Below are positions 6,010 to 30,931 of a stretch of DNA of 32,000 bases, one piece after another. Below the pieces are notes generated by a model that saw only the letters and a program-made list of their open reading frames with translations, did not search any database and was not told the origin of the DNA. Made by a program: the position numbers and the translations under genes. The DNA comes from Balneolaceae bacterium UBA7797 (lineage in GTDB: Bacteria > Bacteroidota > Rhodothermia > Balneolales > Balneolaceae). The DNA lies in NCBI GenBank assembly GCA_002480645.1, contig DLCN01000003.1, positions 276,355-308,354 of the forward strand, written 5' to 3'. How positions within the stretch are numbered: the stretch's first letter is position 1; every line of letters starts with the position of its first letter.

Positions 6010-7815
6010 TTATGGATATTCTAAAAGGTAGATGACCGGCTCAGAACCACGATCAGCTAAACGACGGGCTAAAGCGTTTGCATCTCTGAAGGAGTTAAAG
6101 ATCTCAGATACCTGTACATAATAAAGCCCATTTTCCATCCCGAATACTCGGGTATCGATATTTAGGGCTTCTTTTAATGATTGTACGGCAGCTTCTGCGA
6201 GCTGTCGGTTCTCAAATACATTAATTTGTATCTGATATCTGGCCCGGTAATTTCTGAAATCTTCCGTATTTGGCTTGAGTTCGAGATTTCTGGTTAATCC
6301 CTTTTCCCTGATATTGTTAAGAACAGATAATGCATGATCCTGGCGGGTGTATGGTCCATTCACCACAAGAAAACGGTTTTCAGATTTTACGATATAGGAT
6401 TCGATCCCATAATCTCCAAGAATGGTAAATGAATAATCAATGGCATTTTGCTCTGAAGAGAATGAACCAAATTGGATTAGGTAAGTTAGGGTCTCTATTC
6501 TGTTACTTCCTGCATCACATCGGTGAACAAGATTCAGGTTTAACTCAGGCATCTCACTCTTAACAGTTCTGTAATCTTCAATTGCTTTGGTAAAGTTTTG
6601 ATCACCGGAAGAACGAATGGTATACAGGTCGTTATTAAAACCAATATTAAGTGCTACCCCGGTTCTTTCCGTTACTGAGTTTGAGACATCAAAAGCACTG
6701 TTTAAAGATCTGAAGCTGCCAACCTGAATTGCATAACTACAATTATCCCTGGAACCAAGTGAGAAAACAGCATTTGATGATACCGGTTCCGGATCAGGGG
6801 TTTCAGGCTGTTCAGTTACCTTTTCCGGTTGATCTGCAGCTAATGGTTCGTCAGCTTCAGCAATTTCTTCGTCCTCATCAGGAGTCTGTATGACCTCTTC
6901 TTCTGTATCAACCGTTGTAGCATTATTATTGCTAGCTGATGGGGGCTGAACGGGCTCCGGTAATGGTTTGATTGCCGGAATCGCATCAGATATAAACGTT
7001 AGAGAATCGCTAACAGTCAGGAATTGATTGGTCAGTGAATCTATGTTTGCATTTTGTAGAGAATCAGACTCTAACGAATCTGCCTCAGCAAGTAATTCCT
7101 CTTCCGGCTCAGGTTTTTCTTCCATAGAATAATACAAACGAAGCACTACTCTTCTGTTCATCTCCCTCGGAGCCTCAACCCGTTCGCCATTCTCATCGGT
7201 GATATATCTTGGTCGTGAATCCGCGTAACCTGAAGCCTTCAGGCGAGATTTATCAATGCCTTCTGAAATGAAATACTTGACCACATCTGCTGCCCGTGCT
7301 GTAGATAATTCCCAGTTAGATGGATAAATACGAGATGAGATCGGCACATCATCCGTATGGCCTTCAACATCAATATTATAATCGTCGTACTCATTTTTCC
7401 GGATGGCGACAACGATCTTATTCAAAATATCTTTAGCTGATGAAAGAAGGTTTGCACTTCCCGAATTAAAGAAAGAGTCACTGCTGAATCTGATCTTAAT
7501 ATCATTAAGATCACGGTTGATCTCGATCTTACCTGCCTCGATCTCGTCTACAAGGTAGATCTCCAGTTGACGCTGAACTTCTTCGATCGGGGTGGTTATA
7601 TACTCGGTTTCTATCACCGAGGAGTCGTATAAATTTGAGACGGAAAGGGGATCTTGTTTTGTGATCTGAGAGACGGAAAGTAATACGATCAAAAAACCAA
7701 GGATCACCGTAATGATATCGAGATAACTGATCTGCCAGCTATCCTCATCTTCTCCCTCAAAATGACTGTTGGGGAAGAGTGAATTTCTATTTCTATTGGA
7801 TGGTCCCGGACTCAA
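6010..7815 (-). CDS. MotB-like stator anchor: N-terminal MotB TM/plug, OmpA-like peptidoglycan-binding domain, acidic Pro-rich linker and three C-terminal SPOR repeats
   Basis: 601 aa. The TM segment WQISYLDIITVILGFLIVLL carries the single conserved Asp of MotB-type proteins (compare E. coli YADFMTAMMAFF). The OmpA_C-like core is IDVEGHTDDVPISSRIYPSNWELSTARAADVVKYF...GYADSRP...NRRVVLRL (about 7132-7503). Three SPOR-like units lie at about 6013-6741 (YAIQVGSFRS..., YLIQFGSFSS...LVVNGPYT, YQIQINVFEN...YYVQVSEIF). The start codon is TTG at 7815, 18 nt after the motA-like stop; no in-frame ATG precedes the TM helix. Confidence 0.8.
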   Translation of the reverse strand: MSPGPSNRNRNSLFPNSHFEGEDEDSWQISYLDIITVILGFLIVLLSVSQITKQDPLSVSNLYDSSVIETEYITTPIEEVQRQLEIYLVDEIEAGKIEINRDLNDIKIRFSSDSFFNSGSANLLSSAKDILNKIVVAIRKNEYDDYNIDVEGHTDDVPISSRIYPSNWELSTARAADVVKYFISEGIDKSRLKASGYADSRPRYITDENGERVEAPREMNRRVVLRLYYSMEEKPEPEEELLAEADSLESDSLQNANIDSLTNQFLTVSDSLTFISDAIPAIKPLPEPVQPPSASNNNATTVDTEEEVIQTPDEDEEIAEADEPLAADQPEKVTEQPETPDPEPVSSNAVFSLGSRDNCSYAIQVGSFRSLNSAFDVSNSVTERTGVALNIGFNNDLYTIRSSGDQNFTKAIEDYRTVKSEMPELNLNLVHRCDAGSNRIETLTYLIQFGSFSSEQNAIDYSFTILGDYGIESYIVKSENRFLVVNGPYTRQDHALSVLNNIREKGLTRNLELKPNTEDFRNYRARYQIQINVFENRQLAEAAVQSLKEALNIDTRVFGMENGLYYVQVSEIFNSFRDANALARRLADRGSEPVIYLLEYP

Positions 7816-7833: not shown

Positions 7834-8631
7834 TTATAGTTGTGTCTTATTCCGGCGCATATGGGCCTGCAGTTTATCGTAGATCTGTAATGAGGTTTTT
7901 TGATTTTCGATAAGTAAAACGCCTTCCAGTATCATTTTTTCACGAAAATATTGAAGTGAAGCAATATTATTCATTTTTCGGGCCATAGGAATGAATATGA
8001 AGTTACCAATGATGATCCCATATAAAGTGGTCATAAGCGCAGCTGCCAGTCCTGTAAGCAGAGACTCTACTTCGTTGAACCCTGAAAGCATCACAATAAG
8101 GCCAAAAAGTGTACCCAGCATTCCAAATACAGGGGCAGATTTACCCATGCTCATTATGATCTGATTGATCTGCAATTGTTTAGAGAAATTCTCCTCAATA
8201 TTTATCTCTCCCAATTCCCGGAGTTCCTCTGAACTATAGTTGGTATCCATCACAGAAAACAAATAGCCTTCGAAGGTTTCCATATAATCTTCACTTAATT
8301 GAGCAACCGCTTGTACCCGGTCTTCTTTGATCATTTTCTGCCATTCTAAGATACGTTGAATATCATCCTCTAAAAGGTCATCAGAGATGGTGCTGTGAGA
8401 GAATAAACGCAGGCTTTCCCGATAGGCTCTCAGTACATTTCTAAATGGGTAACTGATAAAGATACTGGCAGAGACACCACCGATCACAATAGCCAAACTT
8501 GGTAGATTCAGATATTCCAGTGTGGTTGGTATCAGCTCATATTGGGTAAAACCCATTACTAATAATGATCCCCACAGTAAAACCATCATGGAGATCAAAA
8601 AGCTGAGTATGTTTAAGATAGAAGTACGCAT
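7834..8631 (-). CDS. MotA/TolQ/ExbB-family proton-channel protein (MotA-like stator subunit)
   Basis: 265 aa. Two N-terminal TM helices are followed by a charged cytoplasmic loop of about 100 aa. The MotA_ExbB core is MGKSAPVFGMLGTLFGLIVML...LAAALMTTLYGIIIGNFIFIPMARKM, with the conserved Pro residues in TM3 and TM4. It lies immediately upstream of the MotB-like gene. Confidence 0.85.
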   Translation of the reverse strand: MRTSILNILSFLISMMVLLWGSLLVMGFTQYELIPTTLEYLNLPSLAIVIGGVSASIFISYPFRNVLRAYRESLRLFSHSTISDDLLEDDIQRILEWQKMIKEDRVQAVAQLSEDYMETFEGYLFSVMDTNYSSEELRELGEINIEENFSKQLQINQIIMSMGKSAPVFGMLGTLFGLIVMLSGFNEVESLLTGLAAALMTTLYGIIIGNFIFIPMARKMNNIASLQYFREKMILEGVLLIENQKTSLQIYDKLQAHMRRNKTQL

Positions 8632-8643: not shown

Positions 8644-9147
8644 TTAAAAATTTTTCCTGAATTTGTCATCAAGCAAACCTTGATTCTGTAGCTCTCTGAG
8701 CACATAGTTTGAGTAGGAGAGCGGTAGATTTTCGTCCAGCTCTAAGGCTTTTCTCCAATCCCGTACAAAATTATCAACCGAACCTAATCCCAGAAAGATA
8801 CTACCTCTAAGAGCAAGAATATCTGCATTTTCTTTAAAACCGTACGCCTTGTTTATATAGTAAAGGGCCTGTTCATAATCTCCGTTATAATATCTCTGTT
8901 GAGCCAGGATATAGAATGTTGTAAGTCCGTTAGCCCTGGCCTGATATTCATTGTACAGATCGATCTTATATTGTTTTTTGATCTCGTTTCTTAATGAATC
9001 AGCTACCGAAGACCGATCACTGTCTTCGTTATCCTGTGTATCCTCAGGATCAGTAAAACTCTCAGCAGAGACATCATCCATCGCTTTTTCACTACTTTTA
9101 CACGAAAAAAGCAGGGCGTAGGCAGGAATCATCATGATCACACCCAA
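8644..9147 (-). CDS. Putative TPR-repeat lipoprotein
   Basis: 167 aa. The N-terminus is hydrophobic and ends in a lipobox-like LLFSC, followed by an acidic stretch. TPR-like helices follow (YNGDYEQALYYINKAYGFKENADILALRGSIFLGLGSVDNFVRDWRKALELD). The ORF-track start is TTG at 9147; alternative ATGs at 9135 and 9132 are in frame, so the start is uncertain. Confidence 0.5.
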   Translation of the reverse strand: MGVIMMIPAYALLFSCKSSEKAMDDVSAESFTDPEDTQDNEDSDRSSVADSLRNEIKKQYKIDLYNEYQARANGLTTFYILAQQRYYNGDYEQALYYINKAYGFKENADILALRGSIFLGLGSVDNFVRDWRKALELDENLPLSYSNYVLRELQNQGLLDDKFRKNF

Positions 9148-9181: not shown

Positions 9182-11062
9182 TCAGTTTTCCTCTTTTACC
9201 AGTTCGCCTTTTTTATGAAGCTCCGCGTAATAACGGATAGACTTCATTAACATTGATTTGGCCGGATTGGTTGCTTTAATATCTTTGATCGGATTCTCCT
9301 GTAATTCCAACCGGATCAGGCGTTGCTCTCTGGAAGGTCGTACAGATAATATCCGGTCAAGGATTTTAGGTTCCAAACCTGCAACAGCTTCCAGTATAGT
9401 GCCTGTATTCAGTTCATTGGCAGCATGCTTAATGATCTCAATATCAAGATCCGGAATCTGTTCTATTGTGATGAATTGTTCTTTTAATGCTTCCGCAACC
9501 ACAGAGCCCGTAGCCTGGAGTTGCTCAATATATTGCCGCTGTTGGGTAACAGGAAGTTTTTCAAGAACCGGAAGGATGTTTTCGGTTCCTTTTCGTTCTT
9601 CTTTTTCCAGCTCGATCAATTCCATGGTTTTATCGAATAGCGAATTTGATATAACCCGATGCTGTTTATAGGTAAGATTATGTAGCGTAGCCATTTTTAA
9701 CATGATGTCAGCTACTCTGTCTCTGTCTAATTGATCCAGTATGGAAGCAGCCCGATATTCATCCAGATAATCAATGATCAGAGCTGCAGTTTGGGTATTC
9801 TCTGTTTTGAGCAATCTGAGAATAACTTTCTCAGATACGTGATCCAGAAAACGGAATAAATTAAGCTGGGAGTGTTTCTGCCTGTTTTCTGATTCACCTT
9901 TGTTACCACCCAGTAATTCGTTGAATTCTGTAGCTATTTGTTTTCGTTCTTCCGTACTGAGAGGGGGTAAGTTATCCAGAGCATCACTGATCGCCTGATA
10001 ATAATCCGGTCGTATATCTTTTTTCAGAGAACGAATAAGGTGTCGATCTACTGACGCAATGACCTGAGCGGCACGCCGGGCTCCCTGGTCCGCATGTTCA
10101 TCCATCCAGTATTCAAACAACAGAGAAATATCCTGTGGCTTATTGAAGAAATTCTGAATCAGAAGATCTACTTCATTCGCTTTATCCGGCTCTATAGTTT
10201 TCAGGATCACTGAATTTGAGGTCTGATCGTTTTTAACTTTTCCTTCAACAGTAAGATCACTTCTTAGATTGCTGCGCTGGGACCGGATTGTAGATTGATC
10301 GGTGGAAGATTTTCGGGTAAAGATGCGAGATATAACCAGAGCGATCAGAAACAATACAAAAAGAACCGCCAGAGGGATGTAATCATTAATGCTTTCAGCA
10401 AAAGTTTTTTCTACTTCGGGCTGATTATTCTGTTGAGGAAGTTGCGGGAGTTCCTGAGCCATATCATCCTGAAAATCAGGCATATTTAAGCGCCGAATGT
10501 TGATCACATCTCCACGATTATCATCTGTTTTAGCAGCGATACCTGTGATCAATCTCATAAATTCCAGTTCACGGGTGGTAAGAGATGAATCAGCATAAAT
10601 ATTAATTACCAGGCTATTCAGTTTAAGAGTACGAATGGTATTCTGATTCAGGATCTTTTCCGGATTATTCTCCACATTTTCATCCGGAAGAAGATTCTCT
10701 TCGGGTAAAAAAGGGAGTCCCGGCATGGTAATATTATTAGGTCGCTGCCTTATGACCTGATTTTGAGTAACGGTGAAGGTTTCGTCGACCATCTCGGCAC
10801 TGATATCAACATCTACAAAAAATGAGCGGGGGTCGAAATAATTGGAAAGTATCTGTAAGACCTGTGCATCGTAACGTTGTTCAAGGGTTGCAACTCTGAG
10901 TTCAAAAGAATCGGAAGTGGTTACATTTTCCCCGGTTTGGGCATAACTATTACCTCCAGCAAAAAGAATGATGAGAGTAAGAGCGAAAACCCAAAGTAAA
11001 TTACTGCTTAAGCCAAATCGTAAGTGCTTAAAATAGATGATTTTGCAATTATAGGTCGACAT
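9182..11062 (-). CDS. Membrane-anchored FliG-like protein: signal/TM, periplasmic domain of about 185 aa, one TM helix, then complete FliG N/M/C-like region
   Basis: 626 aa. The N-terminal h-region is LLWVFALTLIILFAGGNSYA-Q. The periplasmic segment is aa 42-227 (10382-10939) and the TM helix is YIPLAVLFVLFLIALVISRIF (10322-10381). Cytoplasmic aa 310-626 (9185-10135) align by eye with E. coli FliG recalled from memory. N domain: GARRAAQVIASVDRHLIRSL...LSTEERKQIATEF vs [20 protein letters not shown]...ISNKQLTDVLAEF. M domain: FRFLDHVSEKVILRLLKTENTQTAALIIDYLDEYRAASILDQLDRDRVADIMLKMATL vs [55 protein letters not shown]. C domain: SVRPSREQRLIRLELQENPIKDIKATNPAKSMLMKSIRYYAELHKKGELV vs NMSQRAADILRDDLANRGPVRLSQVENEQKAILLIVRRLAETGEMV. 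Confidence 0.7.
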   Translation of the reverse strand: MSTYNCKIIYFKHLRFGLSSNLLWVFALTLIILFAGGNSYAQTGENVTTSDSFELRVATLEQRYDAQVLQILSNYFDPRSFFVDVDISAEMVDETFTVTQNQVIRQRPNNITMPGLPFLPEENLLPDENVENNPEKILNQNTIRTLKLNSLVINIYADSSLTTRELEFMRLITGIAAKTDDNRGDVINIRRLNMPDFQDDMAQELPQLPQQNNQPEVEKTFAESINDYIPLAVLFVLFLIALVISRIFTRKSSTDQSTIRSQRSNLRSDLTVEGKVKNDQTSNSVILKTIEPDKANEVDLLIQNFFNKPQDISLLFEYWMDEHADQGARRAAQVIASVDRHLIRSLKKDIRPDYYQAISDALDNLPPLSTEERKQIATEFNELLGGNKGESENRQKHSQLNLFRFLDHVSEKVILRLLKTENTQTAALIIDYLDEYRAASILDQLDRDRVADIMLKMATLHNLTYKQHRVISNSLFDKTMELIELEKEERKGTENILPVLEKLPVTQQRQYIEQLQATGSVVAEALKEQFITIEQIPDLDIEIIKHAANELNTGTILEAVAGLEPKILDRILSVRPSREQRLIRLELQENPIKDIKATNPAKSMLMKSIRYYAELHKKGELVKEEN

Positions 11063-11102: not shown

Positions 11103-14102
11103 TTATTCTAATGATCCGCCTATATTTATGATCTGATCCAGAGCTTCCATTTCAGGAATATAAATATCCGGATTAAATCTTACAGCCATATTCCAATTCT
11201 CTCTGGCGAGCTCTTTCTCGCCTTTCAAATAGTGGAGGCTACCCTTTAGAGCGTATCCTTGTGCCGTCTTGAAAATGTCCAGCGATTCGTTAACCAGATC
11301 CATCGCCTGTTCAATTCTTTTTCTGTAGAATGCATTCTGTGCCATAATGATCAAACGTAACGAACGGTCCAGATCATTAAGTAAAGACTCTCTGTATGCG
11401 ACCAATTCTCTGTCTGTTTCTAAACTTGCCATGATCGTTTGAAGCGTATCATTCAGCGCTTCCTGCTCTTCATCATAATCTTTTGGAACGATCAGAAAGT
11501 GTAAGCCTTCTATAAAGTCACCTTCAGATTTTGCCTCCACTTCAATATCCAGTTTTTCGGGGATGGTTCTGGAACCAAGAAGATTCAGCTGACTTTGATC
11601 GACGGTAAGTTCATATTTACCCGGAGGGAGTTCATAATCGTAAAAAGTACCATCCGTAAACGTTCTGATGTCTTTTCTGAAGTCATTTTCAGTACCAACG
11701 ATATGGATATTCAATCCTCCCTGAGGCTGGGTATGACCCTCTTCGTATAACCGCTCTACATTACCTTCAATAACGCCCGATAAATAAAAGGGGATATCGA
11801 TCTTCTTAAAGCTGTTCGGGTCGGTTACAAGCGAGAATTTTTCCAGTTCCGGAACCAGCATCGGATTATTCAGCGAAGCCTTCATCATTTCCATATTGTA
11901 CCGGTAATATGACTGCATCTGCGTGTAATAAAGTACTCCGTTCTTATAGATGGGGAAAGAGCCGGACCTTCCGATCCTCATCTTACCTTCTGGTATCAGG
12001 TTATCTTCTTCTTTATCGTACGTATGATTGTTATTGTTATCTACAAACATACGAATCGCAGTTCCTGATTTACCGACCTGATTTCTGCTCGTGATAATGA
12101 AATTCTTATAGTTACTGTCGTAACCCACCGATCCGCGGACATTTTGTGTGGCCGTATAACTTGTTGAATTGGTGGTAAAGGTGGTGGTAGTTCTTGCTTT
12201 ATTGAATTCAAAAATAAAGCCGATTCTGAAATTTGTATTCTGTGTAATGAAATTCTGCCCCAAAGAAACCTGAATTCGGCCGGTTTTCATAACACTTTTC
12301 GAGATCATCATTTCCATGGATTCAGATTGTTTCAAATACGGTCGGTATCTGTAAGTACCTCTGAAAAATGTCCCGATAAGGAAATCAGGGATCTTTTGTT
12401 CTCTGGTTAAACTATAGGTTACAGAACTGTTAACGGAGGCCGCACGAGTCATCTCCAAAGGGTTGAAGGTATCAATCAGTCTGTCACTGTAGCCCAGTCT
12501 TAAGTTCATTTTCTTAACACGAGTGTTCAGATCCAGTCTGTAGTTTGAAAAATTCTCGTTATCTCTGAAGCGGGTATAGGTAGAAGCCCTCACATTTAAC
12601 GGGAAATTGCCGATCCTGAAAGGATAAAATCCGCTTAAGCTGAGCTGACTACTATTTCCACCTTGATTATACAATCCGGATTGTGCAATAAAGTTTGTGT
12701 AATTAACGCTAAAACTGGAGCTGTTTGCGTATATGGCATTAATTCCGGACCTGAAAAATCCATTTGAGATAGCTTCCATGGTTACAATGTAATTTGTAAG
12801 CAGACGCCCTGATACTTTGGAAGTAATGCTGGGACCGGGATTGGAGACTAACCCGTCAAAATACTCAAATCCGGCTCCGGCTGTCAGCCAGTTTGTAACC
12901 CCCACAGTGGTTTTTCCCTGTACAGTATAATTGCGATCTTCAGATCCTATAAGTGAATTTTTTAGCCTTCCTGCGTTTAAGTGATAGGTGACTTCGCCTT
13001 TAGGATTAAAGTTGAATGGAACCTGTACACGTCTCGATTCCTGAATGATCTGTCCCGTAGGACCGTAAATTCTAAGGTCTAATTGTGAGGATCCATAATA
13101 TAACGGTGCAATAAAACGATATCTCCCCAGATCATCCGCTTTTTGAAAATCGATAAGTGAATTGTTTAAGTACAATTCTACTTCTGATTGTGGAGTCACA
13201 TAACCCTGAACTTCGTATTCATCAAAAAACTGACGGCTTTCAATGGGCTCATTAGTTAAACGCACACCAACATATTGCGAATTCAATGCTCCGTCCAGCG
13301 TATTGTCACCAACAGCTACTTTTGTTATTAGCGGTGTATCTCTGATAATATATCGCCAGCGTAGGTTATTAGTGGCGAAGGTCGAGAATTCCGAATTAAC
13401 TGCTGCAATTGTTGAACCCTGCAGATCCCCACCGGCTAATTGAAGACCAATGTTATTACTCATATTAAAGGTAGTAGAGCTTTGACTATTGATCGCAGAA
13501 ATGGAGTAGTCCATGAAGCCTCCATCAAATGCACTCCATTTCCGGTCAAATTCCAGTGGAAAGAATTCGGTGGTAGTTCGGTAACCACGTTGCATATTCT
13601 CTCTTTTTGCCGTTCTTACCGTTCTTTCGATACGTGGAATAGGAATATTGGTCTCCAGATCTAATGCAAGGTTATTGAAATCAACCGTAAAATTTAGCCC
13701 AAAGATATTTTTAAAAATGTCTGGATGTAAGAAATAGTCCAGCTCTTTGATCAGAACCTCTTCCGGTTTGATCTCTGTAGAGGTACCATCAAATGTAATT
13801 GTATAATTTTCAAGATCGATTCGATACGGAATCTGATCGAGCCCAAAATTTCCCTGGACTACCAGACCATTTACATTGGCTTCGAAATCGAGCGTAGAAA
13901 AAAGACCGTTAACAGGCAGGTAGAAAACATCGTCAAGGTAGTAAGAAGTGACGATGCTGTTAATTACACCACGGTGTCTGAATGCAAGATATACCTCGAA
14001 ACTATCATCCTCGTCTACCTGAGCAACACTGTTAACAGGAAACAGTAATCCAAGTAGCAGAGAAAGAATTAAATAACGGGCAAAATTGCATCTTACATTC
14101 AC
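11103..14102 (-). CDS. Outer-membrane fimbrial usher-like protein with a C-terminal CarboxypepD_reg-like domain and TPR-like tail
   Basis: 999 aa with signal peptide LILSLLLGLLFPVNSVAQ. The segment VQGYVTPQSEVELYLNNSLIDFQKADDLGRYRFIAPLYYGSSQLDLRIYGPTGQIIQESRRVQVPFNFNPKGEVTYHLNAGRL (about 12960-13215) follows the usher pattern seen in PapC/FimD (G.a.p.a.V.v.qNG..i....V.pGpF.i.dl....sGdL.v.v.e.dG......v.vp....l..G...Y.l..Gr). A long region of alternating beta-strand-like sequence follows. The C-terminal part has GVIEGNV...TFTDGTFYDYELPPGKYELTV and a TPR-like end (AQGYALKGSLHYLKGEKELARENWNMAVRFNPD). The start is GTG at 14102 and overlaps the chaperone stop (GTGA). Confidence 0.65.
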   Translation of the reverse strand: MNVRCNFARYLILSLLLGLLFPVNSVAQVDEDDSFEVYLAFRHRGVINSIVTSYYLDDVFYLPVNGLFSTLDFEANVNGLVVQGNFGLDQIPYRIDLENYTITFDGTSTEIKPEEVLIKELDYFLHPDIFKNIFGLNFTVDFNNLALDLETNIPIPRIERTVRTAKRENMQRGYRTTTEFFPLEFDRKWSAFDGGFMDYSISAINSQSSTTFNMSNNIGLQLAGGDLQGSTIAAVNSEFSTFATNNLRWRYIIRDTPLITKVAVGDNTLDGALNSQYVGVRLTNEPIESRQFFDEYEVQGYVTPQSEVELYLNNSLIDFQKADDLGRYRFIAPLYYGSSQLDLRIYGPTGQIIQESRRVQVPFNFNPKGEVTYHLNAGRLKNSLIGSEDRNYTVQGKTTVGVTNWLTAGAGFEYFDGLVSNPGPSITSKVSGRLLTNYIVTMEAISNGFFRSGINAIYANSSSFSVNYTNFIAQSGLYNQGGNSSQLSLSGFYPFRIGNFPLNVRASTYTRFRDNENFSNYRLDLNTRVKKMNLRLGYSDRLIDTFNPLEMTRAASVNSSVTYSLTREQKIPDFLIGTFFRGTYRYRPYLKQSESMEMMISKSVMKTGRIQVSLGQNFITQNTNFRIGFIFEFNKARTTTTFTTNSTSYTATQNVRGSVGYDSNYKNFIITSRNQVGKSGTAIRMFVDNNNNHTYDKEEDNLIPEGKMRIGRSGSFPIYKNGVLYYTQMQSYYRYNMEMMKASLNNPMLVPELEKFSLVTDPNSFKKIDIPFYLSGVIEGNVERLYEEGHTQPQGGLNIHIVGTENDFRKDIRTFTDGTFYDYELPPGKYELTVDQSQLNLLGSRTIPEKLDIEVEAKSEGDFIEGLHFLIVPKDYDEEQEALNDTLQTIMASLETDRELVAYRESLLNDLDRSLRLIIMAQNAFYRKRIEQAMDLVNESLDIFKTAQGYALKGSLHYLKGEKELARENWNMAVRFNPDIYIPEMEALDQIINIGGSLE

Positions 14103-14926
14103 CGGATTGAGATCGTTTCTGAAGCAGTGACCGGATCCATCTGGATCAGATCATTTGAAGATAAATCTGGCCTTTGAGATTCAAACAGGGCAGATACACG
14201 GTAAGTGCCGGGAGCAAGGTCGGTAAGATCGAAATCCTGACGATAAACGCCATCGAAGTACATAGAGGTAGAAATGAAACTACGTCGTACTTCTTCTCCC
14301 GCCGGGTTAAACAAAGAAAGTGTAACTGAACCTAAAAAAGGAGAGTTTCCCGTTCTGTTATAATCCACCATAACAGCGAGACTTCCGTCATCATTTAAAG
14401 AAGAACGAATTCCTTCAATTTCAATTCCGGTTGAAACGTCTCCTTTTTTATAAAAAAGTCCGGTTACCTGTTCTACGGTTATACCAACAGTTGCACTAAC
14501 TACCTCAGAGGTTTGGAGCTCTAAGGGTGGTGCTTCCGGTGACGATTTTGTCTTGATTCTTGCCCAGTAGGTGCCATCATTCAGATCATTAGGAGGGGTT
14601 ACTCTTAAACGAACCATCTGGCGTTGACCCGGTGATAACGTGAAGTTCTGAGGGAAAGCTCTGATATAATCCGCAATAGAATATTGTTGCTGAACCAGGC
14701 TATCATCAACTACAGCAGAGCGGTTGCCATCGTTATCAGTACTGCTATAGGCAAAGAAAAAATCTATCGACACTTCCTGAGTTTGGTTTCCGCCATTAAC
14801 CACCATGTAGGACCCAAACCGTGAATTGGCATCAAGAAATAGATTTGTAGGGGCAATAGTAACCTGAGCAAAGGCTACAGAACCAAACAAAAAACAAGCA
14901 AAGACTGTAATTGATATTCGTTTCAT
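14099..14926 (-). CDS. Periplasmic pilus chaperone (PapD-like, two Ig-like domains)
   Basis: 275 aa with signal peptide FACFLFGSVAFAQ. The N-domain pattern VTIAPTNLFLDANSRFGSYMVVNGGNQTQEVSIDFFF...FPQNFTLSPGQRQMVRLRV...DGTYWARIKT resembles the PapD_N signature (v.i.PtR.i......sl.v.N.g..p..vq......f.v.PP.f.l.pg..q.vRi). A second Ig-like half follows. Its stop overlaps the usher-like gene's start. Confidence 0.7.
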   Translation of the reverse strand: MKRISITVFACFLFGSVAFAQVTIAPTNLFLDANSRFGSYMVVNGGNQTQEVSIDFFFAYSSTDNDGNRSAVVDDSLVQQQYSIADYIRAFPQNFTLSPGQRQMVRLRVTPPNDLNDGTYWARIKTKSSPEAPPLELQTSEVVSATVGITVEQVTGLFYKKGDVSTGIEIEGIRSSLNDDGSLAVMVDYNRTGNSPFLGSVTLSLFNPAGEEVRRSFISTSMYFDGVYRQDFDLTDLAPGTYRVSALFESQRPDLSSNDLIQMDPVTASETISIR

Positions 14927-15014
14927 CGAATTTTTTTTTGTTTTAAAAACTAGGTCAATCTAATAAAAAATCAATTTCAGTGTTCAATTATTTATTAGTT
15001 GAAAAATCACCCCT

Positions 15015-15047
15015 AAAAAAAAAGTCTCACAAAATTGTGAGACTTTT
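15015..15047 (-). terminator. Strong rho-independent terminator directly after the putative major pilin gene
   Basis: Perfect stem GTCTCACA (15024-15031) / TGTGAGAC (15036-15043), extendable by A-T pairs, with a 4-nt loop. On the - strand transcript the hairpin is followed by U9 (A9 at 15015-23 on +). It lies 21 nt downstream of the stop at 15069. T4 on the + side makes it weakly bidirectional. Confidence 0.75.
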
Positions 15048-15068
15048 AAATTCTGTTTTACTGTTTGA

Positions 15069-15590
15069 TTATTGGTAATCAACAGTGATCGCGATATCGT
15101 CTCCACCAGTGTTTGAAGTAGAGTAGTTACCGGCAGTTTCAGTACCTGCGAAGTTGATAGTTCCACCAACATACACATCCAGAGTACCACCGGAAAGAGC
15201 AGTTGCGTGAGCACCATCACTATCAACAGTTGTGCCGTCAAAGATCTCAACATCCATAGTAGGTAGCGGAGTTGTTCCGTCGGTAAGAGTTGCAGATACA
15301 TCATAAGTAATATCGATTGCAGAGTTGCCAGTACCTGTAATGGTAATTCGACCGCGCTGAGAACCGGTTCCGGCACCAGCATCAACTCCGTCAGCACCTA
15401 CAGTAACGTTACCTGAAGTACCGGTTGCAATAGCACCGAAAGATACCGTATCAACTACAGTGATGTTAAGAGAAGCAAGAACGTTTGCAGCTGCACCAAC
15501 GTTGTCAGATGCACTTGTTTGAGCGAAAGCAGCAGTAGAAGCGATAGCAACTACAGCAAGAACAGCGAATATATTTTTGAAAGATTTCAT
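15069..15590 (-). CDS. DUF4402-type pilin-like secreted protein, putative major subunit
   Basis: The preferred start is the ATG at 15590 (MKSFKNIFAVLAVVAIASTAAFAQ, a classic signal peptide), not the ORF-track start at 15641. The mature protein is Thr/Gly/Ala-rich and has the DUF4402-like layout: N-terminal ...LNITVVDTVSFGAIA..., ...RGRITITGTGNSAIDITY..., and a C-terminal ...VYVGGTINFAGTETAGNYS...IAITVDYQ ending. It is flanked by a promoter-like box and a strong terminator. Confidence 0.7.
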   Translation of the reverse strand: MKSFKNIFAVLAVVAIASTAAFAQTSASDNVGAAANVLASLNITVVDTVSFGAIATGTSGNVTVGADGVDAGAGTGSQRGRITITGTGNSAIDITYDVSATLTDGTTPLPTMDVEIFDGTTVDSDGAHATALSGGTLDVYVGGTINFAGTETAGNYSTSNTGGDDIAITVDYQ

Positions 15591-15700: not shown

Positions 15701-16225
15701 TTAGTCATAAGAAACAATAAGTAAGGCCTCTCCGGAATAGCTTCCGTTTGGGATGTTTCCAATGTTAATTGCCCCTGTTACATATACAAATACATCTTTC
15801 CAGTAATCGGTATTTGCCCCTGTTGTGCTTGCAAAATTGGTCATGTTAATAAAGCCATAGTTATTTGCCAGTAATTTGGAATCAAAAGGGTCGTCCCCTG
15901 AATTGTTATAATAGATATTCAGATCCAGGGGAATATTATCTTCGATAGTAGGATCAGAATGGCTAAGTGCATCGGGATAATCTAATTCGATAGTAAGACT
16001 TTGAGTCCGGTAGGTTCTGATCTTGAATATTCCAAGACTGAGATCATCGAGACCAATTCTGGTAATTCCGGAGTTTGTGGTGAGCGTACCGAAATTTAAT
16101 TCCTGTTCCACCTCAATGGTCAATTCCGGTTCAACATCAATTTCGATATCTATGATCTGGGCGTTTACAAAGATGGGGCAAATAGACAGAATTATGAGAA
16201 CAGAAAAGAATCTTGCTCTAATCAT
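15701..16225 (-). CDS. DUF4402-like pilin paralogue (minor subunit candidate)
   Basis: 174 aa with signal peptide FFSVLIILSICPIFVNAQ. It has ...ELNFGTLTT... early in the mature protein and the C-terminal family ending VYVTGAINIGNIPNGSYSGEALLIVSYD. Its ATG overlaps the upstream gene's stop by 8 nt (ATGATTAG). Confidence 0.6.
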   Translation of the reverse strand: MIRARFFSVLIILSICPIFVNAQIIDIEIDVEPELTIEVEQELNFGTLTTNSGITRIGLDDLSLGIFKIRTYRTQSLTIELDYPDALSHSDPTIEDNIPLDLNIYYNNSGDDPFDSKLLANNYGFINMTNFASTTGANTDYWKDVFVYVTGAINIGNIPNGSYSGEALLIVSYD

Positions 16226-16820: not shown

Positions 16821-16829
16821 TATGATCTA

Positions 16830-19971: not shown

Positions 19972-20391
19972 TTAGTAACTATATGATTTAACATAATTAA
20001 GGGTGATAAAGATATCGGGATCGAAAGTGGTGTTTACCACTGTTACCCCAACCTGATAGCGACGTATTGAACCGTCATCTTCGATCATTTCCGATTCTGC
20101 ATACAAGTAAAAATCATCGGAATACTGATCACTTGAGCCATAATTATAAGTGATCGTTTTCGGGTAATCACTGTAAATATAGCGTCCATCATCCGGGTCG
20201 AGCTCTTCTTCAGCATAGATCCACTGAACCTTGTCCAATTCATCCTGTGCGATAGCAATAGCCCTGTATTCGGCTTCAGCTCTGTAAAGAGTCTGCCGGG
20301 ACTGGTTATAGCTCCGGGATGTATTTATGGCCAGCATGGAGAAGACCATCATGGCAGCCGTTAAAAAGATTATTTCAGCGTAGCTCGACAT
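19972..20391 (-). CDS. Pilin/pseudopilin-like protein (set 2, small member)
   Basis: 139 aa. The N-terminus MSSYAEIIFLTAAMMVFSMLAI resembles a shortened prepilin signature (Y-x-E-I instead of F-T-L-I-E). AIAIAQDELD is shared with the set-1 small paralogue (VIAIAQDFID). Confidence 0.45.
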   Translation of the reverse strand: MSSYAEIIFLTAAMMVFSMLAINTSRSYNQSRQTLYRAEAEYRAIAIAQDELDKVQWIYAEEELDPDDGRYIYSDYPKTITYNYGSSDQYSDDFYLYAESEMIEDDGSIRRYQVGVTVVNTTFDPDIFITLNYVKSYSY

Positions 20392-20525
20392 TTTCAGAGT
20401 TTATTATATTTGAAAATACTCAATGTTCGCCCCTTATGTAATTAGACTGTATTAATTAAAATAATCTAAAAAAGCTATTTAAGTCTGCTAAAATTACCAA
20501 TCAGCTCCTAAAATGAAAAGGGCGG

Positions 20526-21635
20526 CTATTCAAAGGTACTTACCAGATTATACCGGTTCTGTTTTAAGTGATTTGCAGATGCCGTTCTTGCATAATCAAT
20601 GGCTAAACAATCATATTGGATATGGATGTTTCCACTCAGGTCCACATCCAGTGTGTTATTATTGTCGTCAGTATTTCCGATCAGAACTGACCCGTTAAGA
20701 TCTGGAGTACCTTTACCATCGAAGTCGAACGCATTTTCGAATACGATCAAACCGTTGAATGTAAAGTTACCGGCTACAGAAAGCGCCCCTTCATACTCCA
20801 GTTCTCCGCCGGAACGGATAACCAAAATTCCATAACCATCAGAGATACCACCCGTTAACTTTGCATAAGATTCTACAAAAAATATACCCGGATCGTCCGC
20901 AGAACCAAATTCCCCCTTATAATTCCCGCTGATGTGCTGAACTCCGGGTTGACCGGCAAGTCGTGCAATTAATTCATCTACCGGCTTGTAGGAGATGTCC
21001 GGATCGATGGAAATCTTATCAACGCTACTTTCCAGGTCACCATACTTACCGAATGCACCGGTTGTTACTTCCGCATAGCTGGAAAGATCAGGAACCGTGA
21101 TCGCGGGAATATCGGGACAGGTGCCACTGGCATCGTTTCCACTAATGGATGAGCTGCCTCCCATGCTAAAAGTGAAATTATCAGAGGCAAAGCCTAATCC
21201 GCCTTTTGGTTCGGGAACGAAATTCAACGCTGATTTAATGTAAGTACTGATCACCGTATGACTGGTGGAAGAGCTTTTGTATGAGGCTGAGCCTTTGGTT
21301 CCTTGTCCTCCGTACCAGGAAGTACTGTAAATTCTTATGGTATCCGGATCTAATATGGTTGCGCCTGCTGCTATCACATCATAATAAAGTTCAGTGTACG
21401 CTCCGTCGATCTCGTTTTCCCAGGGATTATTCACACTCGGCGACCAGGACGGATCCTGATTGATCTTTTCCATTGCCAATTGAATGGCACTGTGAGCTGT
21501 ATTCTTTGACTGTATCTCTTTGGCGTATTCAGAGGTGAGGCGTTGTACACGTTCTCGTTGGCTGTACATGCCGAGCCGGATGATCCCCAGCACCATGATT
21601 GCGCCAACCGATAAAATTACCATTCCACGTCCCAT
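20526..21635 (-). CDS. PilX-N-like pilus-associated protein (set 1, large member)
   Basis: 369 aa. The N-terminal helix is MGRGMVILSVGAIMVLGIIRLGM, followed by AKEIQSKNTAHSAIQLAMEKI. The C-terminal part is beta-helix-like (GILVIRSGGELEYEGALSVAGNFTFNGLIVFENAFDFDGKGTPDLNGSVLIGN). Confidence 0.5.
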   Translation of the reverse strand: MGRGMVILSVGAIMVLGIIRLGMYSQRERVQRLTSEYAKEIQSKNTAHSAIQLAMEKINQDPSWSPSVNNPWENEIDGAYTELYYDVIAAGATILDPDTIRIYSTSWYGGQGTKGSASYKSSSTSHTVISTYIKSALNFVPEPKGGLGFASDNFTFSMGGSSSISGNDASGTCPDIPAITVPDLSSYAEVTTGAFGKYGDLESSVDKISIDPDISYKPVDELIARLAGQPGVQHISGNYKGEFGSADDPGIFFVESYAKLTGGISDGYGILVIRSGGELEYEGALSVAGNFTFNGLIVFENAFDFDGKGTPDLNGSVLIGNTDDNNNTLDVDLSGNIHIQYDCLAIDYARTASANHLKQNRYNLVSTFE

Positions 21636-21646
21636 AGAACTACTCC

Positions 21647-22261
21647 TTAGTTATCCCGAAGGTTTACTGGTGAGAATCTTTTCGTCCATGAGGTGCTTAC
21701 GTATGAGTCGTTTGAAAAACTATTACGTTTTAAGCCCACAGAACTCTGTGTATTCATGATTATCTCGATCTGAGTGATAGAATCAATCGTGGATTTTGCA
21801 GTTTTTGCATAGATGGGAGTCGGGAGCGGGGTAGTGCTTCCTAGGGATGAATAATACCGGATCTCGAAATCAACAACACCAGTATTCATTTCAACGGTAC
21901 TGCCATTTACTGTTCTTTTAAGAACAAAATCGTTTGGGTTTGGTGTGGATGTGACGGAATCACTTGTAAACTCCCACCGGATCAATTCAAGGGATTCATC
22001 CGCACTGTTGTCTATATTGGCATAGAATTCAATAAAATCATCCCCCGCAGCTCTGATCAGGGTGTCCGGTAATGAATTCCGGTTATAACCGATCTTCGGA
22101 AAATCGTAGGTAAGAGTCTCGACAACTTCTGAGACTTTAGTTTTTTGGATTTCCTGAAGTGTTAATTCATTTCCGCTAAAGTTAGTGTTATAGCCAACTG
22201 TGGTAATGATCACGATCAGAAATCCTGCAATGATATAGCTGAGTATTAATCCAAAGTTCAT
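21647..22261 (-). CDS. Pilin/pseudopilin-like protein (set 1, PilW/GspJ-like member)
   Basis: 204 aa with N-terminus MNFGLILSYIIAGFLIVIITTV. It is a paralogue of the 194-aa protein, starts 5 nt after the upstream gene and ends 11 nt before the downstream gene. Confidence 0.45.
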   Translation of the reverse strand: MNFGLILSYIIAGFLIVIITTVGYNTNFSGNELTLQEIQKTKVSEVVETLTYDFPKIGYNRNSLPDTLIRAAGDDFIEFYANIDNSADESLELIRWEFTSDSVTSTPNPNDFVLKRTVNGSTVEMNTGVVDFEIRYYSSLGSTTPLPTPIYAKTAKSTIDSITQIEIIMNTQSSVGLKRNSFSNDSYVSTSWTKRFSPVNLRDN

Positions 22262-22266
22262 AGTGA

Positions 22267-22770
22267 TCAGTCAGCGTAAAAGCTTCGAAGAAACTTAAAA
22301 TGATAGTTGTTTGCAGAGCCGTTATTCTCCAGTATGTCGGAAGAAATAGTGATCTCCATTATTTTAAGTGTCGAAAAGCTATTAATCACATTCGATCCGT
22401 CATAATAATCAACAGAGATCGACACTTCGTAATCAACACCACCTGAAGTAGTGATTGTTTGGGTCCAGCCATCATAGTCATCAAAATCATCGAAATTTGC
22501 GCGGGTAGCTTCTCCGGCTTCAGGGCCCAGATTTGCGGTAAATCCTGAAGGTATATTAACCGGAACTCCACCATCGGTGGTTTCTTCATCAAAGGTAGTG
22601 GAACGGGATTCATCTATAAAATCCTGAGCAATGGCAATGACCTGATCCTCCAGTTCTCCCTCGACCATACTTTGGGTGTTGGTGATAATAGCCCGGTTCG
22701 AGTTCATAACAAGAAATGAAACCAGAATTAATGCTAAGATTGTTTGAAGTATTTCAGTGTATCCACTCAT
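22267..22770 (-). CDS. Pilin/pseudopilin-like protein (set 1, small member)
   Basis: 167 aa. The N-terminus MSGYTEILQTILALILVSFLVM has Gly then Y-T-E-I-L, like a prepilin G/FTLIE site shortened by two residues. It is a paralogue of the 139-aa protein. Confidence 0.45.
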   Translation of the reverse strand: MSGYTEILQTILALILVSFLVMNSNRAIITNTQSMVEGELEDQVIAIAQDFIDESRSTTFDEETTDGGVPVNIPSGFTANLGPEAGEATRANFDDFDDYDGWTQTITTSGGVDYEVSISVDYYDGSNVINSFSTLKIMEITISSDILENNGSANNYHFKFLRSFYAD

Positions 22771-22894: not shown

Positions 22895-25800
22895 TTATTT
22901 TATGAGAGTGAATCGTTTAACGATATTCTTTGAATCGGTAACCAATCGATAGAAATATACACCACTTGCCAGATTATCTGCCCGGAAGGTAACTTCATAT
23001 TTTCCGGGGTTTTTGATCTCATTTACCAGTGTTTTTACTTTCCTTCCCAGAATATCATAAACAATCAGAGATACATTGGTATTGGTATCTACTCCATAGG
23101 GTATGATAGTGGAAGGGTTGAACGGATTAGGGTAATTCTGATCGAGGTATACTTCGGTTGGTACATTCGATTCTATCTCTTCCGTACTGATCTTCAGGGT
23201 AAATCTGGTCGATTTGGAATCAGCTTTCTTCATAATAGAAGAACTTTTATACCGGGGATTAGCTGAGTATAATTTTGTTTTGGTTGTATGGAAGAAGGTA
23301 TAGGATAATTCTTCCATTACATTGATCTCGGTACCGGTATCATTATCAACGAGAGTGATCACCCAATCCGCAGGGATATTTCTCAACCCACTCCACTTAA
23401 TGGTCATTTCTCCGGAGTACGGATCTCCTCCTTCGTAGGCATTAAGCTGAATCGGGATAAAATACCGGCTATCAAAATCGAATGGCAAGTTGTTGATCGC
23501 TAATTCAGTACCGTCATCAAGGAGTGTGTAAAATTCAATATGCGAACTGGACAAGGGGAGAAGTCGGTACGCATCGTAGGTATCTTTGCCAGTAGCAGCC
23601 TCATCAGAGAACATGATATTGGTTCTTTTAGAACGACCGGCATCAGATTCGACCATTAATTGAAGGATAGGTATACCGGCGATCTTCTCTTTACTCTTTG
23701 TGGTATCCTGTGATTGAATGTCATCGGTGGATGCAGTTTTTCTCATAAAACTACCACCGGTGGTCTTGGCCTCTTTCTTAACTTTAAGTACCGGGCTATT
23801 GCCATTTGCTTTTACCCAGAAGCCCTGGAATGGAGCGATCAAACCACCGCCCGGATGTGTTCCCGTAACTCCGTTCCATGTCAGATATTCGCCACTGCCA
23901 CCGTTAGCTGATGGATCCCAGATATAAATAGTTGATTCAACATTGGTCTTCGTCCAGTTCGGTGAATCGTCCCAATCGATGGTTGCCAGATATGGGTTCC
24001 CAACCAGGTTCCAGCCGGAATCGGCCGAAGTGGTGTATGTGATACCAAAATCAACTTCAGCACCATCTCCTCTGAAAGCACGTCCTTCAACATCTAAGGT
24101 ATCCGGAAGCGGGTCGTTGTAAAGTGGGTCGGCAGGAATATCACCAAACAGATAAACGAACATACCCTGACCTTCAGTAACTTTTTGGGAAGTACTGGTT
24201 GGAGTACGGTACCGCTGATTATCTGTTCCGGCATAACTTTCTACATAGGTCAACACATTTGGTTGGAGAGTGTCTCCCGGGTTTGAACCTGTGCTGTAAA
24301 AAGCTCCGGAATAACCCTGAGTTATGATTCCATCGAGAAAATCTCCATACGTGGTATCCAGCGGGGAAGATATGATGCGCCATCCGCGGGATCCCTGGAA
24401 TCTGCGTTGCATTCGCACCGTTCCGGTACCATATAACTCATAATTGCTTACTAAGTTTGTTCCGCTTGGCATGAACAGGGTGCCCGAGGTAAGCTTCAAG
24501 GTGTCGTTAACGATCAGATTACTGAAGAAATCAGCACCGTTAGAATTATCGAGTTCAAGGTTGGAGTACTCGTTCGGACTTGTAACATCCTGATTGGTGG
24601 TTCCATTCAGGATCACAAAACCGAGTGTCACATCAGAAACATCAAAATTACCACCTATCGACAGAGAATCTGTATTACTGCCGGTTATTGAACCACCGCC
24701 GGAAGCTTTATCAGTTACTACAAAATGAATTCCTCCTGAAACAGTAACGGAAGCACCGGATTCAATTGATATCAGCTCGATGGTTGTATTTGTTGAGCTG
24801 ATCACCGGTTGTTCATTACCAACAGATGGATTTGCCGGAATAAGGATCTTATCGCCGGATACAGGGACACTATTTGTTGACCAGTTGGAATTATCATCCC
24901 AGTTTCTGGCATCGGTAACGGTACCAACCTGAGATTGCCATACATTATCAAATTCAGCGAATTCTACGGTTGCCTCGTCGTTTATGGCGCCCCCGTTCAG
25001 CGTTCCGGAAATAGTAGCAATTCCTGCAGCGATCGATGAGGTTAAAGTGGCAGAGTAAGTACCATCACCATTATTTGTTACTGATCCGAGTGTGCCATCC
25101 GTAGTTGATAGTGCAATGGTCGACGGGCTGGTTGTTAAATTGTTCTCGTAATGATCTTTAAGCTGTACGGTAATGGTTGAAGTTGAGAAACCATCGTTTT
25201 GAATGATCGTGGGATTCGCAGTGATAGTTGTTGTTGAAGCATCAGCTGACCCCGGACTTACAACAAAGGTATTACTTGTACCGGTTTCAGATCCTGAGGA
25301 ATTCGTTGCCGTGATAGTACAGGTTCCCGTACTGGTGATCATCATCGATTTTGGAGTGAGCACGCCACTCGTAAATGCTGCTGAGGTTCCCTGGCCAACA
25401 CCAATATCACAGTTTGAAGTAACCACAACGGTCCCTGTAAAGCTGGTTACGGTATCCTGAAGCCCATCTGCTGCAATTATACTGATGTTAAATGTCTGTC
25501 CGGCTAATTTATCAGAGATATTACCGGAAGGTACCCGCTGAATAATAAACTGTGTAAGCTCGCCGGCAGTAACTACATCAAACTCTGTACTTGTTGTATC
25601 TGTAAGACCGGAACTCGAAGCTGTAAGTGTATAAGTACCGATTGCATCCACGTTGATGTCGTCGAATTCGGCAATACCGAACAGATTCGTTTGTTCAGTT
25701 GTGGTTCCTGCTAAACTGCCTGATCCGCTTACCTGATTGAGAGCCAGACTGATATCGACCCTGCTTTCCTCTACTGCGTTTCCATATTGATCGATCAGCT

Positions 25801-30931: not shown

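Follow-up and report, generated by a model that had tools for sequence, protein, structure and literature searches.

A probable flagellum-derived rotor–stator module within a chaperone-usher fibre system of Balneolaceae

The 32,000-nt stretch of Balneolaceae bacterium UBA7797 analysed here (contig DLCN01000003.1, positions 276,355 to 308,354; 42% G+C), hereafter the window, begins on the plus strand with alaS and three genes for pyruvate dehydrogenase (30–5879) and continues with a run of 19 consecutive minus-strand open reading frames (ORFs), already pointed out in an earlier sequence-only reading of the same DNA and numbered here g01 to g19 in the direction of transcription, from coordinate 31961 down to 6010. 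Genes g14–g19 probably encode a rotor–stator unit that is flagellum-derived yet non-flagellar and forms an integral part of a chaperone-usher fibre system, the interpretation towards which we cautiously lean. It draws on domain identities, the folds of predicted models, the conservation of catalytic and torque residues and gene linkage, and from these we infer a ring, its rotation, a TPR bridge to the outer membrane and a powered step.

The putative rotor protein, g16 (9182–11062, minus strand like every feature below unless stated otherwise), comprises 626 amino acids (aa) and, judging from its AlphaFold model together with Foldseek, profile and hhalign comparisons, is a natural FliF–FliG fusion equipped with a signal peptide. 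The FliG homologue named in the sequence-only reading is thereby confirmed, albeit with a different anatomy, and the accompanying statement that fliF is absent from the window does not hold, because g16 fuses a FliF RBM3-like domain to FliG and a piece of fliF thus lies inside it. The model, with a mean predicted local distance difference test score (pLDDT) of 75.7, comprises a hydrophobic N-terminal segment with a conserved Ala-Gln end, a domain at residues 53–192, a helix at 221–249 and a helical region at 296–620. The domain that follows the N-terminal segment (residues ~53–192; 10487–10906), predicted to be periplasmic and ring-building, runs in the order alpha, long beta hairpin, alpha, beta, carries the family-invariant motifs MPGLPFLP and RGD, and matches the RBM3/collar region of the FliF S-ring (6sd1_A, 8zdt_A, 7d84_A and 8z5v_A in the PDB) with Foldseek E values of 2e-5 to 1e-4 and TM-scores on target of 0.55–0.57. 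The Pfam YscJ_FliF model does not match g16, and an hhalign comparison of the g16 family with Escherichia coli FliF left RBM3 unmatched at the sequence level. From the full FliF set of RBM1, RBM2, RBM3 and two membrane helices, g16 retains an RBM3/collar-like domain only; the periplasmic part measures about 180 aa and so has no space for RBM1 and RBM2, the domains that house the export gate in flagella. The single predicted transmembrane helix (residues ~221–249; 10316–10402) is helical in the model and hydrophobic in all family members.

The predicted cytoplasmic part of g16 (residues ~296–620; 9203–10177) contains FliG-like N, M and C domains with the torque helix SREQRLIRLELQ. Pfam recognises all three domains (FliG_M 1.1e-12, FliG_N 3.8e-10, FliG_C 6.3e-7), some 315 columns align to full-length FliG in 8wiw_3, 8umx_B and 3hjl (Foldseek E 2e-8 to 5e-7), a family profile retrieves Thermotoga maritima FliG 1lkv (E 7e-24) and the FliG_N structure 5tdy_B (E 0.006) from the PDB sequences, and hhalign relates the family to E. 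coli FliG at a probability of 96%. In an alignment of 68 close relatives, all about 600 aa long and from Balneola or Balneolaceae wherever named, Arg578 and Glu586, which correspond to R281 and D289 of the E. coli FliG torque helix, are invariant, and the FliM-binding EHPQR motif of FliG is degenerate in g16. Taken together, the fold matches to the RBM3/collar and to full-length FliG point to a complete FliG attached to a FliF that lacks RBM1 and RBM2. An exhaustive profile search places 168 clusters (50% identity) in the g16 family at E<=1e-30, mostly of 580–810 aa and matching end to end, and a homology search seeded with an alignment of the distant fusions returned 6 proteins; some automatic annotations label members of the family FliG. 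Immediately after the membrane helix lies the motif FF..PQ(E/D)I(A/S)LLFEYW (residues 302–324; 10099–10167), whose PQ(E/D)I(A/S)LLFEYW portion hhalign aligns weakly with the FliG-binding tail of E. coli FliF (residues 529–551; E 0.019, probability 2.4%), in the expected order; homology to the FliF C-terminal tail is at most hinted at by this comparison.

The remaining motor components are likewise closest to flagellar proteins. The MotB-type stator B subunit g19 (6010–7815; 601 aa; MotB_plug 3.8e-6, OmpA 2.3e-18, SPOR 1.6e-15) is composed of a transmembrane helix with plug at residues 21–54, an OmpA-type peptidoglycan-binding domain at 115–212, a low-complexity linker and C-terminal SPOR domains at 444–506 and about 525–588, and its channel residue Asp33 is invariant in 64 orthologues. 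Its nearest NCBIfam models are flagellar MotD, MotB and MotS, all far under cut-off, and its best matches among sequences of solved structures are flagellar MotB, MotS and PomB. The MotA-type A subunit g18 (7834–8631; 265 aa; Pfam MotA_ExbB 1.3e-16) carries the long cytoplasmic insert between transmembrane helices 2 and 3, aligns with flagellar stators over nearly its whole length including this insert, and retains both conserved MotA prolines across the 64 orthologues. All ten of its solved-structure sequence matches are flagellar stators (Clostridium sporogenes MotA, 8ucs, at 8e-23; PomA at 8e-18), with neither ExbB nor TolQ among these ten, and its only match to an NCBIfam ExbB model (E 0.0036) compares with 2e-30 for MotP. 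The models nearest to g18 (MotP, MotA and PomA) all score far under their equivalog cut-offs, and g18 and g19 are therefore best regarded as relatives, not orthologues, of the named flagellar stators. The channel aspartate and the peptidoglycan-binding domain of a MotA/MotB-type stator are thus both present, and the hallmarks of Tol-Pal or ExbBD-TonB are not, since g19 combines MotB_plug with OmpA and the cluster contains no TolA- or TonB-type gene. Zorya-type defence and GldLM were also considered and dropped, because FliG is the partner and flagellar stators match the A subunit along its entire length. Between the rotor and stator genes lies g17 (8644–9147), a small lipoprotein with lipobox LLFSC and weak matches to TPR_1, TPR_2 and TPR_8.

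Pfam and NCBIfam searches of the window proteins accepted the MotA, MotB, FliG and DUF4402 assignments of the sequence-only reading as well as its two type IX secretion system (T9SS) tails, and left unrecognised the 999-aa usher, the 275-aa chaperone-like protein, two of the four pilins and all six pilin-like proteins. For the usher-like porin g15 the proposed identity was settled by fold, since sequence searches gave little: Pfam is silent on the window protein, its Usher model is positive in 2 of 45 orthologues, and a g15 profile finds its TPR tail among PDB sequences and nothing else. In contrast, the AlphaFold model (999 aa, pLDDT 82.3) returns FimD/PapC ushers as all of its top 18 Foldseek matches (E 1e-29 to 9e-9, 500–900 columns aligned). 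Its core (residues 35–875; 11478–14000) consists of an N-terminal domain, a plugged beta-barrel and two immunoglobulin (Ig)-like C-terminal domains, as befits the usher of a chaperone-usher pathway, and is followed by a TPR extension (residues 878–997; 11112–11471), modelled as helical repeats and matching consensus TPR proteins, which classical ushers lack. This tail is 34–44% identical to a TPR lipoprotein of a second, usher-free form of the module (type B, below), and g17 itself shares 25% identity with the usher C-terminus over 64 aa.

Upstream of the usher, its stop codon overlapping the usher start by 4 nt, lies g14 (14099–14926; 275 aa), a putative periplasmic protein of two Ig domains in the chaperone position. 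PapD_N matches are weak (4 of 25 orthologues, best E 0.004, among other Ig-like families) and a g14 profile finds no match among solved-structure sequences, whereas its position and overlap fit a predicted chaperone. The four DUF4402 subunits announced by the sequence-only reading are borne out by Pfam for g13 (15069–15590; 1.2e-12), an Ala/Thr/Gly-rich protein with a penultimate Tyr, and for g10 (16830–17330; 3.9e-7); g11 and g12 have no Pfam match and join the family through an HMM (hidden Markov model) built from g10 and g13 orthologues (E 3e-14 for g12 and 1.5e-5 for g11). The genes g12, g11 and g10 (15701–17330; 174, 200 and 166 aa) are syntenic in 33 loci, and all four subunits carry signal peptides and a common C-terminal Gly...Tyr...x-Tyr-x end. 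A DUF4402 profile found no relative of solved structure among PDB sequences. In this part of the run and beyond, the signal peptides of g02 and g09–g16 nearly all end in Ala-Gln (AFAQ, SYAQ, VNAQ, SVAQ), which fits the common occurrence in Bacteroidota of an N-terminal Gln after the signal peptidase I site.

The 18 intergenic distances given in the sequence-only reading were recomputed exactly (97, 124, 5, 11, 134, 9, 9, 15, 97, 9, −8, 110, 142, −4, 40, 34, 12 and 18 nt), provided that g13 starts at the ATG at 15590; within g14–g19 they amount to −4, 40, 34, 12 and 18 nt. The run is nonetheless no single operon of 19 genes, an arrangement rejected on account of a conserved terminator after g13: an intrinsic-terminator-like hairpin at 15020–15047, with a 12 bp stem and nine T, begins 22 nt past the g13 stop, and a hairpin with a T-run follows the g13 orthologue in all 24 related loci, 16–23 nt past the last DUF4402 gene. 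The stems of these hairpins vary in sequence and keep their pairing (for example in L004, at about 5974–6003), a pattern consistent with a conserved terminator or attenuator behind the gene of the major subunit. The run thus comprises two or more transcription units, of which g14–g19 form the downstream one. In the pap and fim operons a terminator likewise follows the major subunit gene, and g13 is on this account probably the major fibre subunit. The proposed bidirectional terminator at the other end of the run, a hairpin at 5908–5932, is a good terminator for the plus-strand operon and only partly one for the minus strand, where just four T follow the stem. Two further ORFs, at 14984–15397 and, on the plus strand, 9258–9671, overlap g13 and g16 in other frames and are almost certainly not genes, their translations being of low complexity and without homologues.

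Comparison across genomes bears on whether this association is more than local. A scan at one genome per species yielded 60 loci, sorted by tblastn of the window proteins. Thirty-five Balneolaceae loci constitute type A: their FliF–FliG proteins (hereafter FliFG) are 40–48% identical, g10–g19 occur in the same order (pilins, chaperone, TPR-usher, FliFG, TPR, MotA, MotB) beside alaS and the pyruvate dehydrogenase genes, g14 is conserved, and g18 identity ranges from 66 to 75%; the exceptions are a few loci where a low-complexity g13 falls under the tblastn cut-off and contigs that end inside the cluster. In the 24 Balneolaceae loci of type B, which often share a genome with type A, FliFG is 22–25% identical and belongs to a five-gene module with a secreted protein of ~360 aa with an outer-membrane-type aromatic end, a TPR lipoprotein, MotA and a short MotB. 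Representatives of the module, within Balneolaceae and beyond, are L039 (10001–15145, Gracilimonas tropica DSM 19535, a strain listed as non-motile) and L040–L063, as well as L002, L065, L069 and L070. The 360-aa protein is unrelated to the usher (hhalign probability 0.4%) and has only faint beta-barrel matches in Pfam. A g17 homologue stands between FliFG and MotA in nearly all loci of both types, and several complete chromosomes hold two paralogous g16-family copies. Complete Balneolaceae chromosomes with the cluster include OZ252011.1, CP051242.1 and OZ244932.1.

Six distant members of the family, placed on contigs, extend both arrangements. In L065, L069 (a metagenome-assembled genome with the label Elusimicrobiota) and L070 the type B module lies amid housekeeping genes, and L066, L067 and L068 are usher-linked, with DUF4402-like genes, one or two chaperone-like genes, usher, FliFG, MotA and MotB in this order. 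HMMs from Balneolaceae recognise their ushers at E 1e-234 to 1e-250 and their g14 homologues at 1e-49 to 1e-61, and match the pilins too; identity to the window is 30–32% for the usher, 30–33% for the chaperone, 21–23% for FliFG and 35–36% for MotA, at G+C contents of 55, 49 and 40%. The adjacency of motor to usher and DUF4402 genes is thus conserved in the 35 Balneolaceae loci and in three contigs at 21–36% protein identity. Histidine kinase and response regulator genes adjoin the motor in L002 (7447–9432), L065 (7512–9902), L066 (9755–11928) and L067 (13859–16080), and are unlinked to it in the window and in the Balneolaceae type A loci.

None of 70 loci examined is a flagellar locus, and no other flagellar gene was found within 10 kb of them. 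Of fliM/N, flhA/B, fliPQR, flagellin, PilB/C/Q and GspE-type genes the window yielded none, in line with the sequence-only reading, which lists fliM/N, flhA, flagellin, PilB/C/Q and GspE. Among 20 E. coli flagellar and chemotaxis queries, a set outside which the rod and hook proteins FlgB–L and flagellin fall, those for FliE, FliF, FliH, FliI, FliJ, FliK, FliL, FliM, FliN, FliP, FliQ, FliR, FlhA, FlhB, CheA and CheW gave no tblastn match in the window plus the 70 loci (1.43 Mb), and the only matches obtained were to FliG, MotA, MotB and CheY-like receivers. The proposal that a stator and a FliG-type rotor serve a surface fibre is accordingly upheld on the points on which it had been staked, namely conserved adjacency, a setting outside flagellar loci and profile support for the family assignments, while delivery of energy to the fibre is a proposal at the level of mechanism. 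The scope of the system is narrower than first drawn: the conserved machine is g10–g19, and the triads and T9SS proteins encoded upstream lie outside it.

A physical link between motor and usher is suggested by the distribution of TPR domains. The TPR tail of the usher tracks the motor, with 38 ushers having both and 3 neither, and in the three motor-less Gracilimonas ushers examined TPR is replaced by SPOR, which in the Balneolaceae motor version sits on MotB. Moreover, in L066 (5844–8267) and L067 (10001–12265) the TPR lipoprotein frame is fused in frame to the FliFG C-terminus and a separate TPR gene is missing. The fusion junction is a positively charged, hydrophobic, lipobox-bearing segment (LLAGC and FWTSC, respectively) in signal-peptide orientation, which would put the TPR domain in the periplasm beside the ring; this internal lipobox may represent either a second membrane helix or a point of cleavage by signal peptidase II. 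From domain fusion and co-variation, both read from protein sequences, we infer that motor and usher make contact. The L066 FliFG protein also has an N-terminal LysM domain.

A mechanism can be proposed on this basis. The g16 protein would be exported by means of its cleavable signal peptide and held in the inner membrane by its one helix, its periplasmic RBM3-like domains oligomerising into a ring that presents a complete FliG per subunit in the cytoplasm. MotA/MotB units, anchored to peptidoglycan by their OmpA and SPOR domains, would pass H+ or Na+ through Asp33 and push on the torque helix at Arg578 and Glu586, and the ring, lacking a FliM/FliN switch, would turn in one direction. It is the ring domain, the one-to-one FliG, the invariant torque charges and the invariant channel aspartate that point to such an ion-driven, unidirectional FliFG ring. 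As a periplasmic adaptor, g17 may act with the TPR domain of the usher to tether the ring to this outer-membrane protein, which would secrete the four-subunit DUF4402 fibre. Ion-motive force from the inner membrane would thereby reach the usher, and either gate or drive secretion or else turn, tension, retract or position the fibre.

Several observations weigh against such a motor-powered usher. The RBM3 assignment derives from a predicted structure (Foldseek E ~1e-5) and has no counterpart at the sequence level, D288 and R297 of E. coli FliG are lost in the g16 family, and conservation is no more than moderate for the MotA loop charges that meet FliG in flagella. A ring tied through TPR could not spin freely unless the barrel co-rotated or the contact were transient or cyclic, and the chaperone-usher pathway is known to run without energy input. 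Balneola vulgaris, furthermore, is reported to be flagellated (PMC5167729). Finally, fibre genes occur without a motor in Gracilimonas, where such clusters end at the usher (L064 10001–13516, L073 6001–9516, L074 6001–10188), and the motor occurs without a fibre as the five-gene module. Because this module exists alone, the motor is not intrinsically part of a pilus; its primary job may be something else, and the usher version may have borrowed a motor whose role in the envelope is a general one. Taken to its conclusion, this argument yields two independent neighbours, an ordinary fibre and a motor with an envelope job of its own, be it a Tol-Pal-like septal task or work on its own outer-membrane partner. 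The motor-less fibre clusters, the stand-alone modules with their small outer-membrane-like protein (24 Balneolaceae loci plus L065, L069 and L070), the conserved terminator that parts the pilin genes from g14–g19, and the combination of OmpA, SPOR and TPR lipoprotein, which recalls TolR, Pal and CpoB (PMC12204202), all agree with it. We nevertheless consider independence unlikely, if worth serious attention, as chaperone, usher, FliFG, TPR, MotA and MotB form a single tightly spaced unit that is kept at 21–36% identity in three unrelated contigs, the TPR tail of the usher accompanies the motor (both in 38 ushers, neither in 3), and the same type of TPR is fused to FliFG in two contigs.

The constraint on free rotation, whether from a covalent or a TPR tie to the outer-membrane barrel, also speaks for a FliFG ring that is static, either a scaffold positioning or anchoring the usher, for instance at poles or septa by way of SPOR, or a sensor of load or ion flux that signals to adjacent two-component systems, with MotAB as its anchor on peptidoglycan. 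SPOR domains direct placement at denuded peptidoglycan, so that their presence on MotB implies siting there, and the moderate conservation of the MotA loop charges also speaks for it. The two-component genes beside the module in L002, L065, L066 and L067 would suit a sensor, but they are unlinked in the window and in the type A loci of Balneolaceae, and the invariance of Asp33, of both MotA prolines and of the two central torque charges across a very divergent family is hard to explain other than by ion-coupled work on FliG; a static ring therefore appears to us a rather poor prospect. At the opposite extreme, the DUF4402 fibre would itself be rotated, or wound and unwound, by the rotor–stator with the usher barrel as the rotating outer-membrane element, which we rate as improbable; in that vein, the 'flagella' reported for some Balneolaceae might partly be such fibres. 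Least credible, to the point of being very nearly dismissed, is a decaying flagellar remnant or an extra stator and FliG serving a canonical flagellum encoded elsewhere. The closeness of three of the proteins to flagellar ones, the automatic annotation of the g16 family as FliG and the description of B. vulgaris as flagellated (PMC5167729) would be accounted for, but not the failure of the E. coli FliE/F/H/I/J/K/L/M/N/P/Q/R, FlhA/B and CheA/W queries across the 1.43 Mb around the 70 loci, the missing RBM1 and RBM2 and degenerate FliM-binding motif of g16, the intactness of proteins conserved in 168 clusters, or the stand-alone module of G. tropica DSM 19535, listed as non-motile.

The module can be placed among known systems by what it shares with each. 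With the flagellar motor core it has in common the three domains of FliG (N, M and C), including the arginine and an acidic residue of the torque helix, an RBM3/collar-like domain, a one-to-one FliF:FliG ratio, and a stator with channel aspartate, plug, both MotA prolines and peptidoglycan-binding domain, the nearest sequence or fold relatives of g16, g18 and g19 all being flagellar. It differs in that g16 lacks RBM1 and RBM2, has one membrane helix instead of two and a degenerate EHPQR motif, in that SPOR is carried on MotB and the genes share an operon with those of an usher and a TPR lipoprotein, and in that FliM/FliN and the export gate are unmatched and rod, hook and filament not found nearby (FlgB–L and flagellin lying outside the tblastn queries). 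Engineered FliF–FliG fusions of Salmonella and Vibrio likewise join ring-building and FliG parts in one chain, and their rings assemble and can function, yet they keep all three RBMs and do flagellar work, whereas g16 has RBM3 only and a dedicated stator. The natural FliF–FliG fusion of Chlamydiaceae, ~330 aa long, combines RBM2 and one unidentified RBM-like motif with FliG M only, is thought to be injectisome-related and has no linked MotAB (PMC4768692), in contrast to the RBM3, complete FliG and dedicated stator described here. It is the only natural fusion in the literature searched, all others being engineered.

Chaperone-usher pili of the FimD/PapC type, a pathway to which the archaic Csu-like branch also belongs, share the usher architecture, a periplasmic protein (here a putative two-Ig one) directly upstream of the usher, a set of small secreted subunits whose C-termini bear Gly...Tyr, and a terminator after the major subunit gene. 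In the Balneolaceae system, however, the usher has a C-terminal TPR (or SPOR) domain, the subunits are DUF4402 proteins, the sequences have diverged to the point where the Pfam models Usher and PapD_N rarely match them, and an ion-driven motor is linked to a pathway that classically runs without external energy. Tol-Pal (with CpoB), ExbBD-TonB, GldLM/PorLM and AglRQS-Glt are also inner-membrane ion-driven units that work on the outer membrane, with TPR and OmpA-type partners, and 5:2 motors are known to be reused for non-swimming tasks (PMC12204202; PMC12505986). These envelope motors act through a TolA-, TonB- or GldM-type arm instead of a FliG ring, and have A subunits of the non-flagellar group.

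The upstream half of the run, g01–g09, is best described as a set of variable accessories, namely triads and T9SS adhesins. The interval 17428–22770 encodes two triads of N-helix-anchored proteins (139, 194 and 510 aa; 167, 204 and 369 aa) and a 130-aa secreted protein; the only domain found in the triads is DUF4900, in the 510-aa protein (17836–19368). The sequence-only reading took the six triad proteins to be type IV pilin-like, and their N-termini are indeed short and lead into a hydrophobic helix, but no N_methyl, PilX_N or type II secretion HMM matches them, their N-termini (M[SA][SG]Y[AT]EI, MN[VI]G[LI]ITT, MG[KR]S) contain neither the G(-1)/F(+1) prepilin motif nor a Gly-ended leader, and PilB, PilC, PilD and PilQ genes are lacking in the window, which leaves a resemblance in size to GspI/J/K. 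The small members (19972–20391, 22267–22770 and their orthologues), for which no family was found, start with M[SA][SG]Y[AT]EI ahead of the hydrophobic helix, so that once Met1 were lost Glu would be residue 5, its place in mature type IV pilins, although the leader is absent. About 12 type A loci have neither the second triad nor g09, and in these the giant T9SS gene sits right beside g10; the first triad is rarer still; triads are absent from L066–L068 and present in the motor-less L064.

Both T9SS proteins of the sequence-only reading were substantiated by Por_Secre_tail matches above the Pfam cut-off. The giant g02 (22895–30931; 2678 aa) has its tail at residues 2600–2674 (6.1e-8) besides DUF2341, Laminin_G_3 and Invasin_D3, and holds at least six repeats of ~130 aa (...LAYNSGD...ITS...D.DD.NL..A...ITS....ED.L.F....GITGS......G.LTLTG....NYQ.ALR.VTY.N...) with a weak calsyntenin-like match alone in Pfam. 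Its neighbour g01 (31029–31961; 310 aa) has the tail at 232–306 (2e-10). In Balneolaceae the giant gene adjoins the fibre genes whether or not a motor is there, and it is missing from L066 and L068.

The combination appears to be undescribed. Literature on DUF4402, non-flagellar FliG-like proteins, FliF–FliG fusions and FliG with ushers, in a search that covered few subscription journals, does not describe such a system, in keeping with the view of the sequence-only reading, which still stands on this point since the literature searched holds nothing on a motor–usher system. Outside flagella, as far as we are aware, 5:2 motors act through TolA-, TonB- or GldM-type arms and never through a FliG ring, and we know of no departure from the view that FliG together with a FliF ring is specific to the flagellum. 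Surveys of MotAB relatives (PMC12505986) and of the force transducers of 5:2 motors (PMC12204202) do not mention a FliG-containing non-flagellar system. Cultured carriers are available for both forms, Balneola sp. EhC07 for the usher-linked one and G. tropica DSM 19535 for the one that stands alone.

Should the proposed reading of g14–g19 be true, the rotor–stator core of the flagellum would be a portable module, and the family would offer a minimal natural system in which to study torque generation. It would also bear on the origin of the flagellar motor, as a rotor–stator pair existing apart from type III secretion, and its hard-wiring to an usher would challenge the textbook notion of chaperone-usher fibres as energy-free. 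If the fibre does rotate, Balneolaceae would possess a second, independently assembled rotary surface filament made without type III export, which may be a present-day analogue of some early phase of flagellar evolution.

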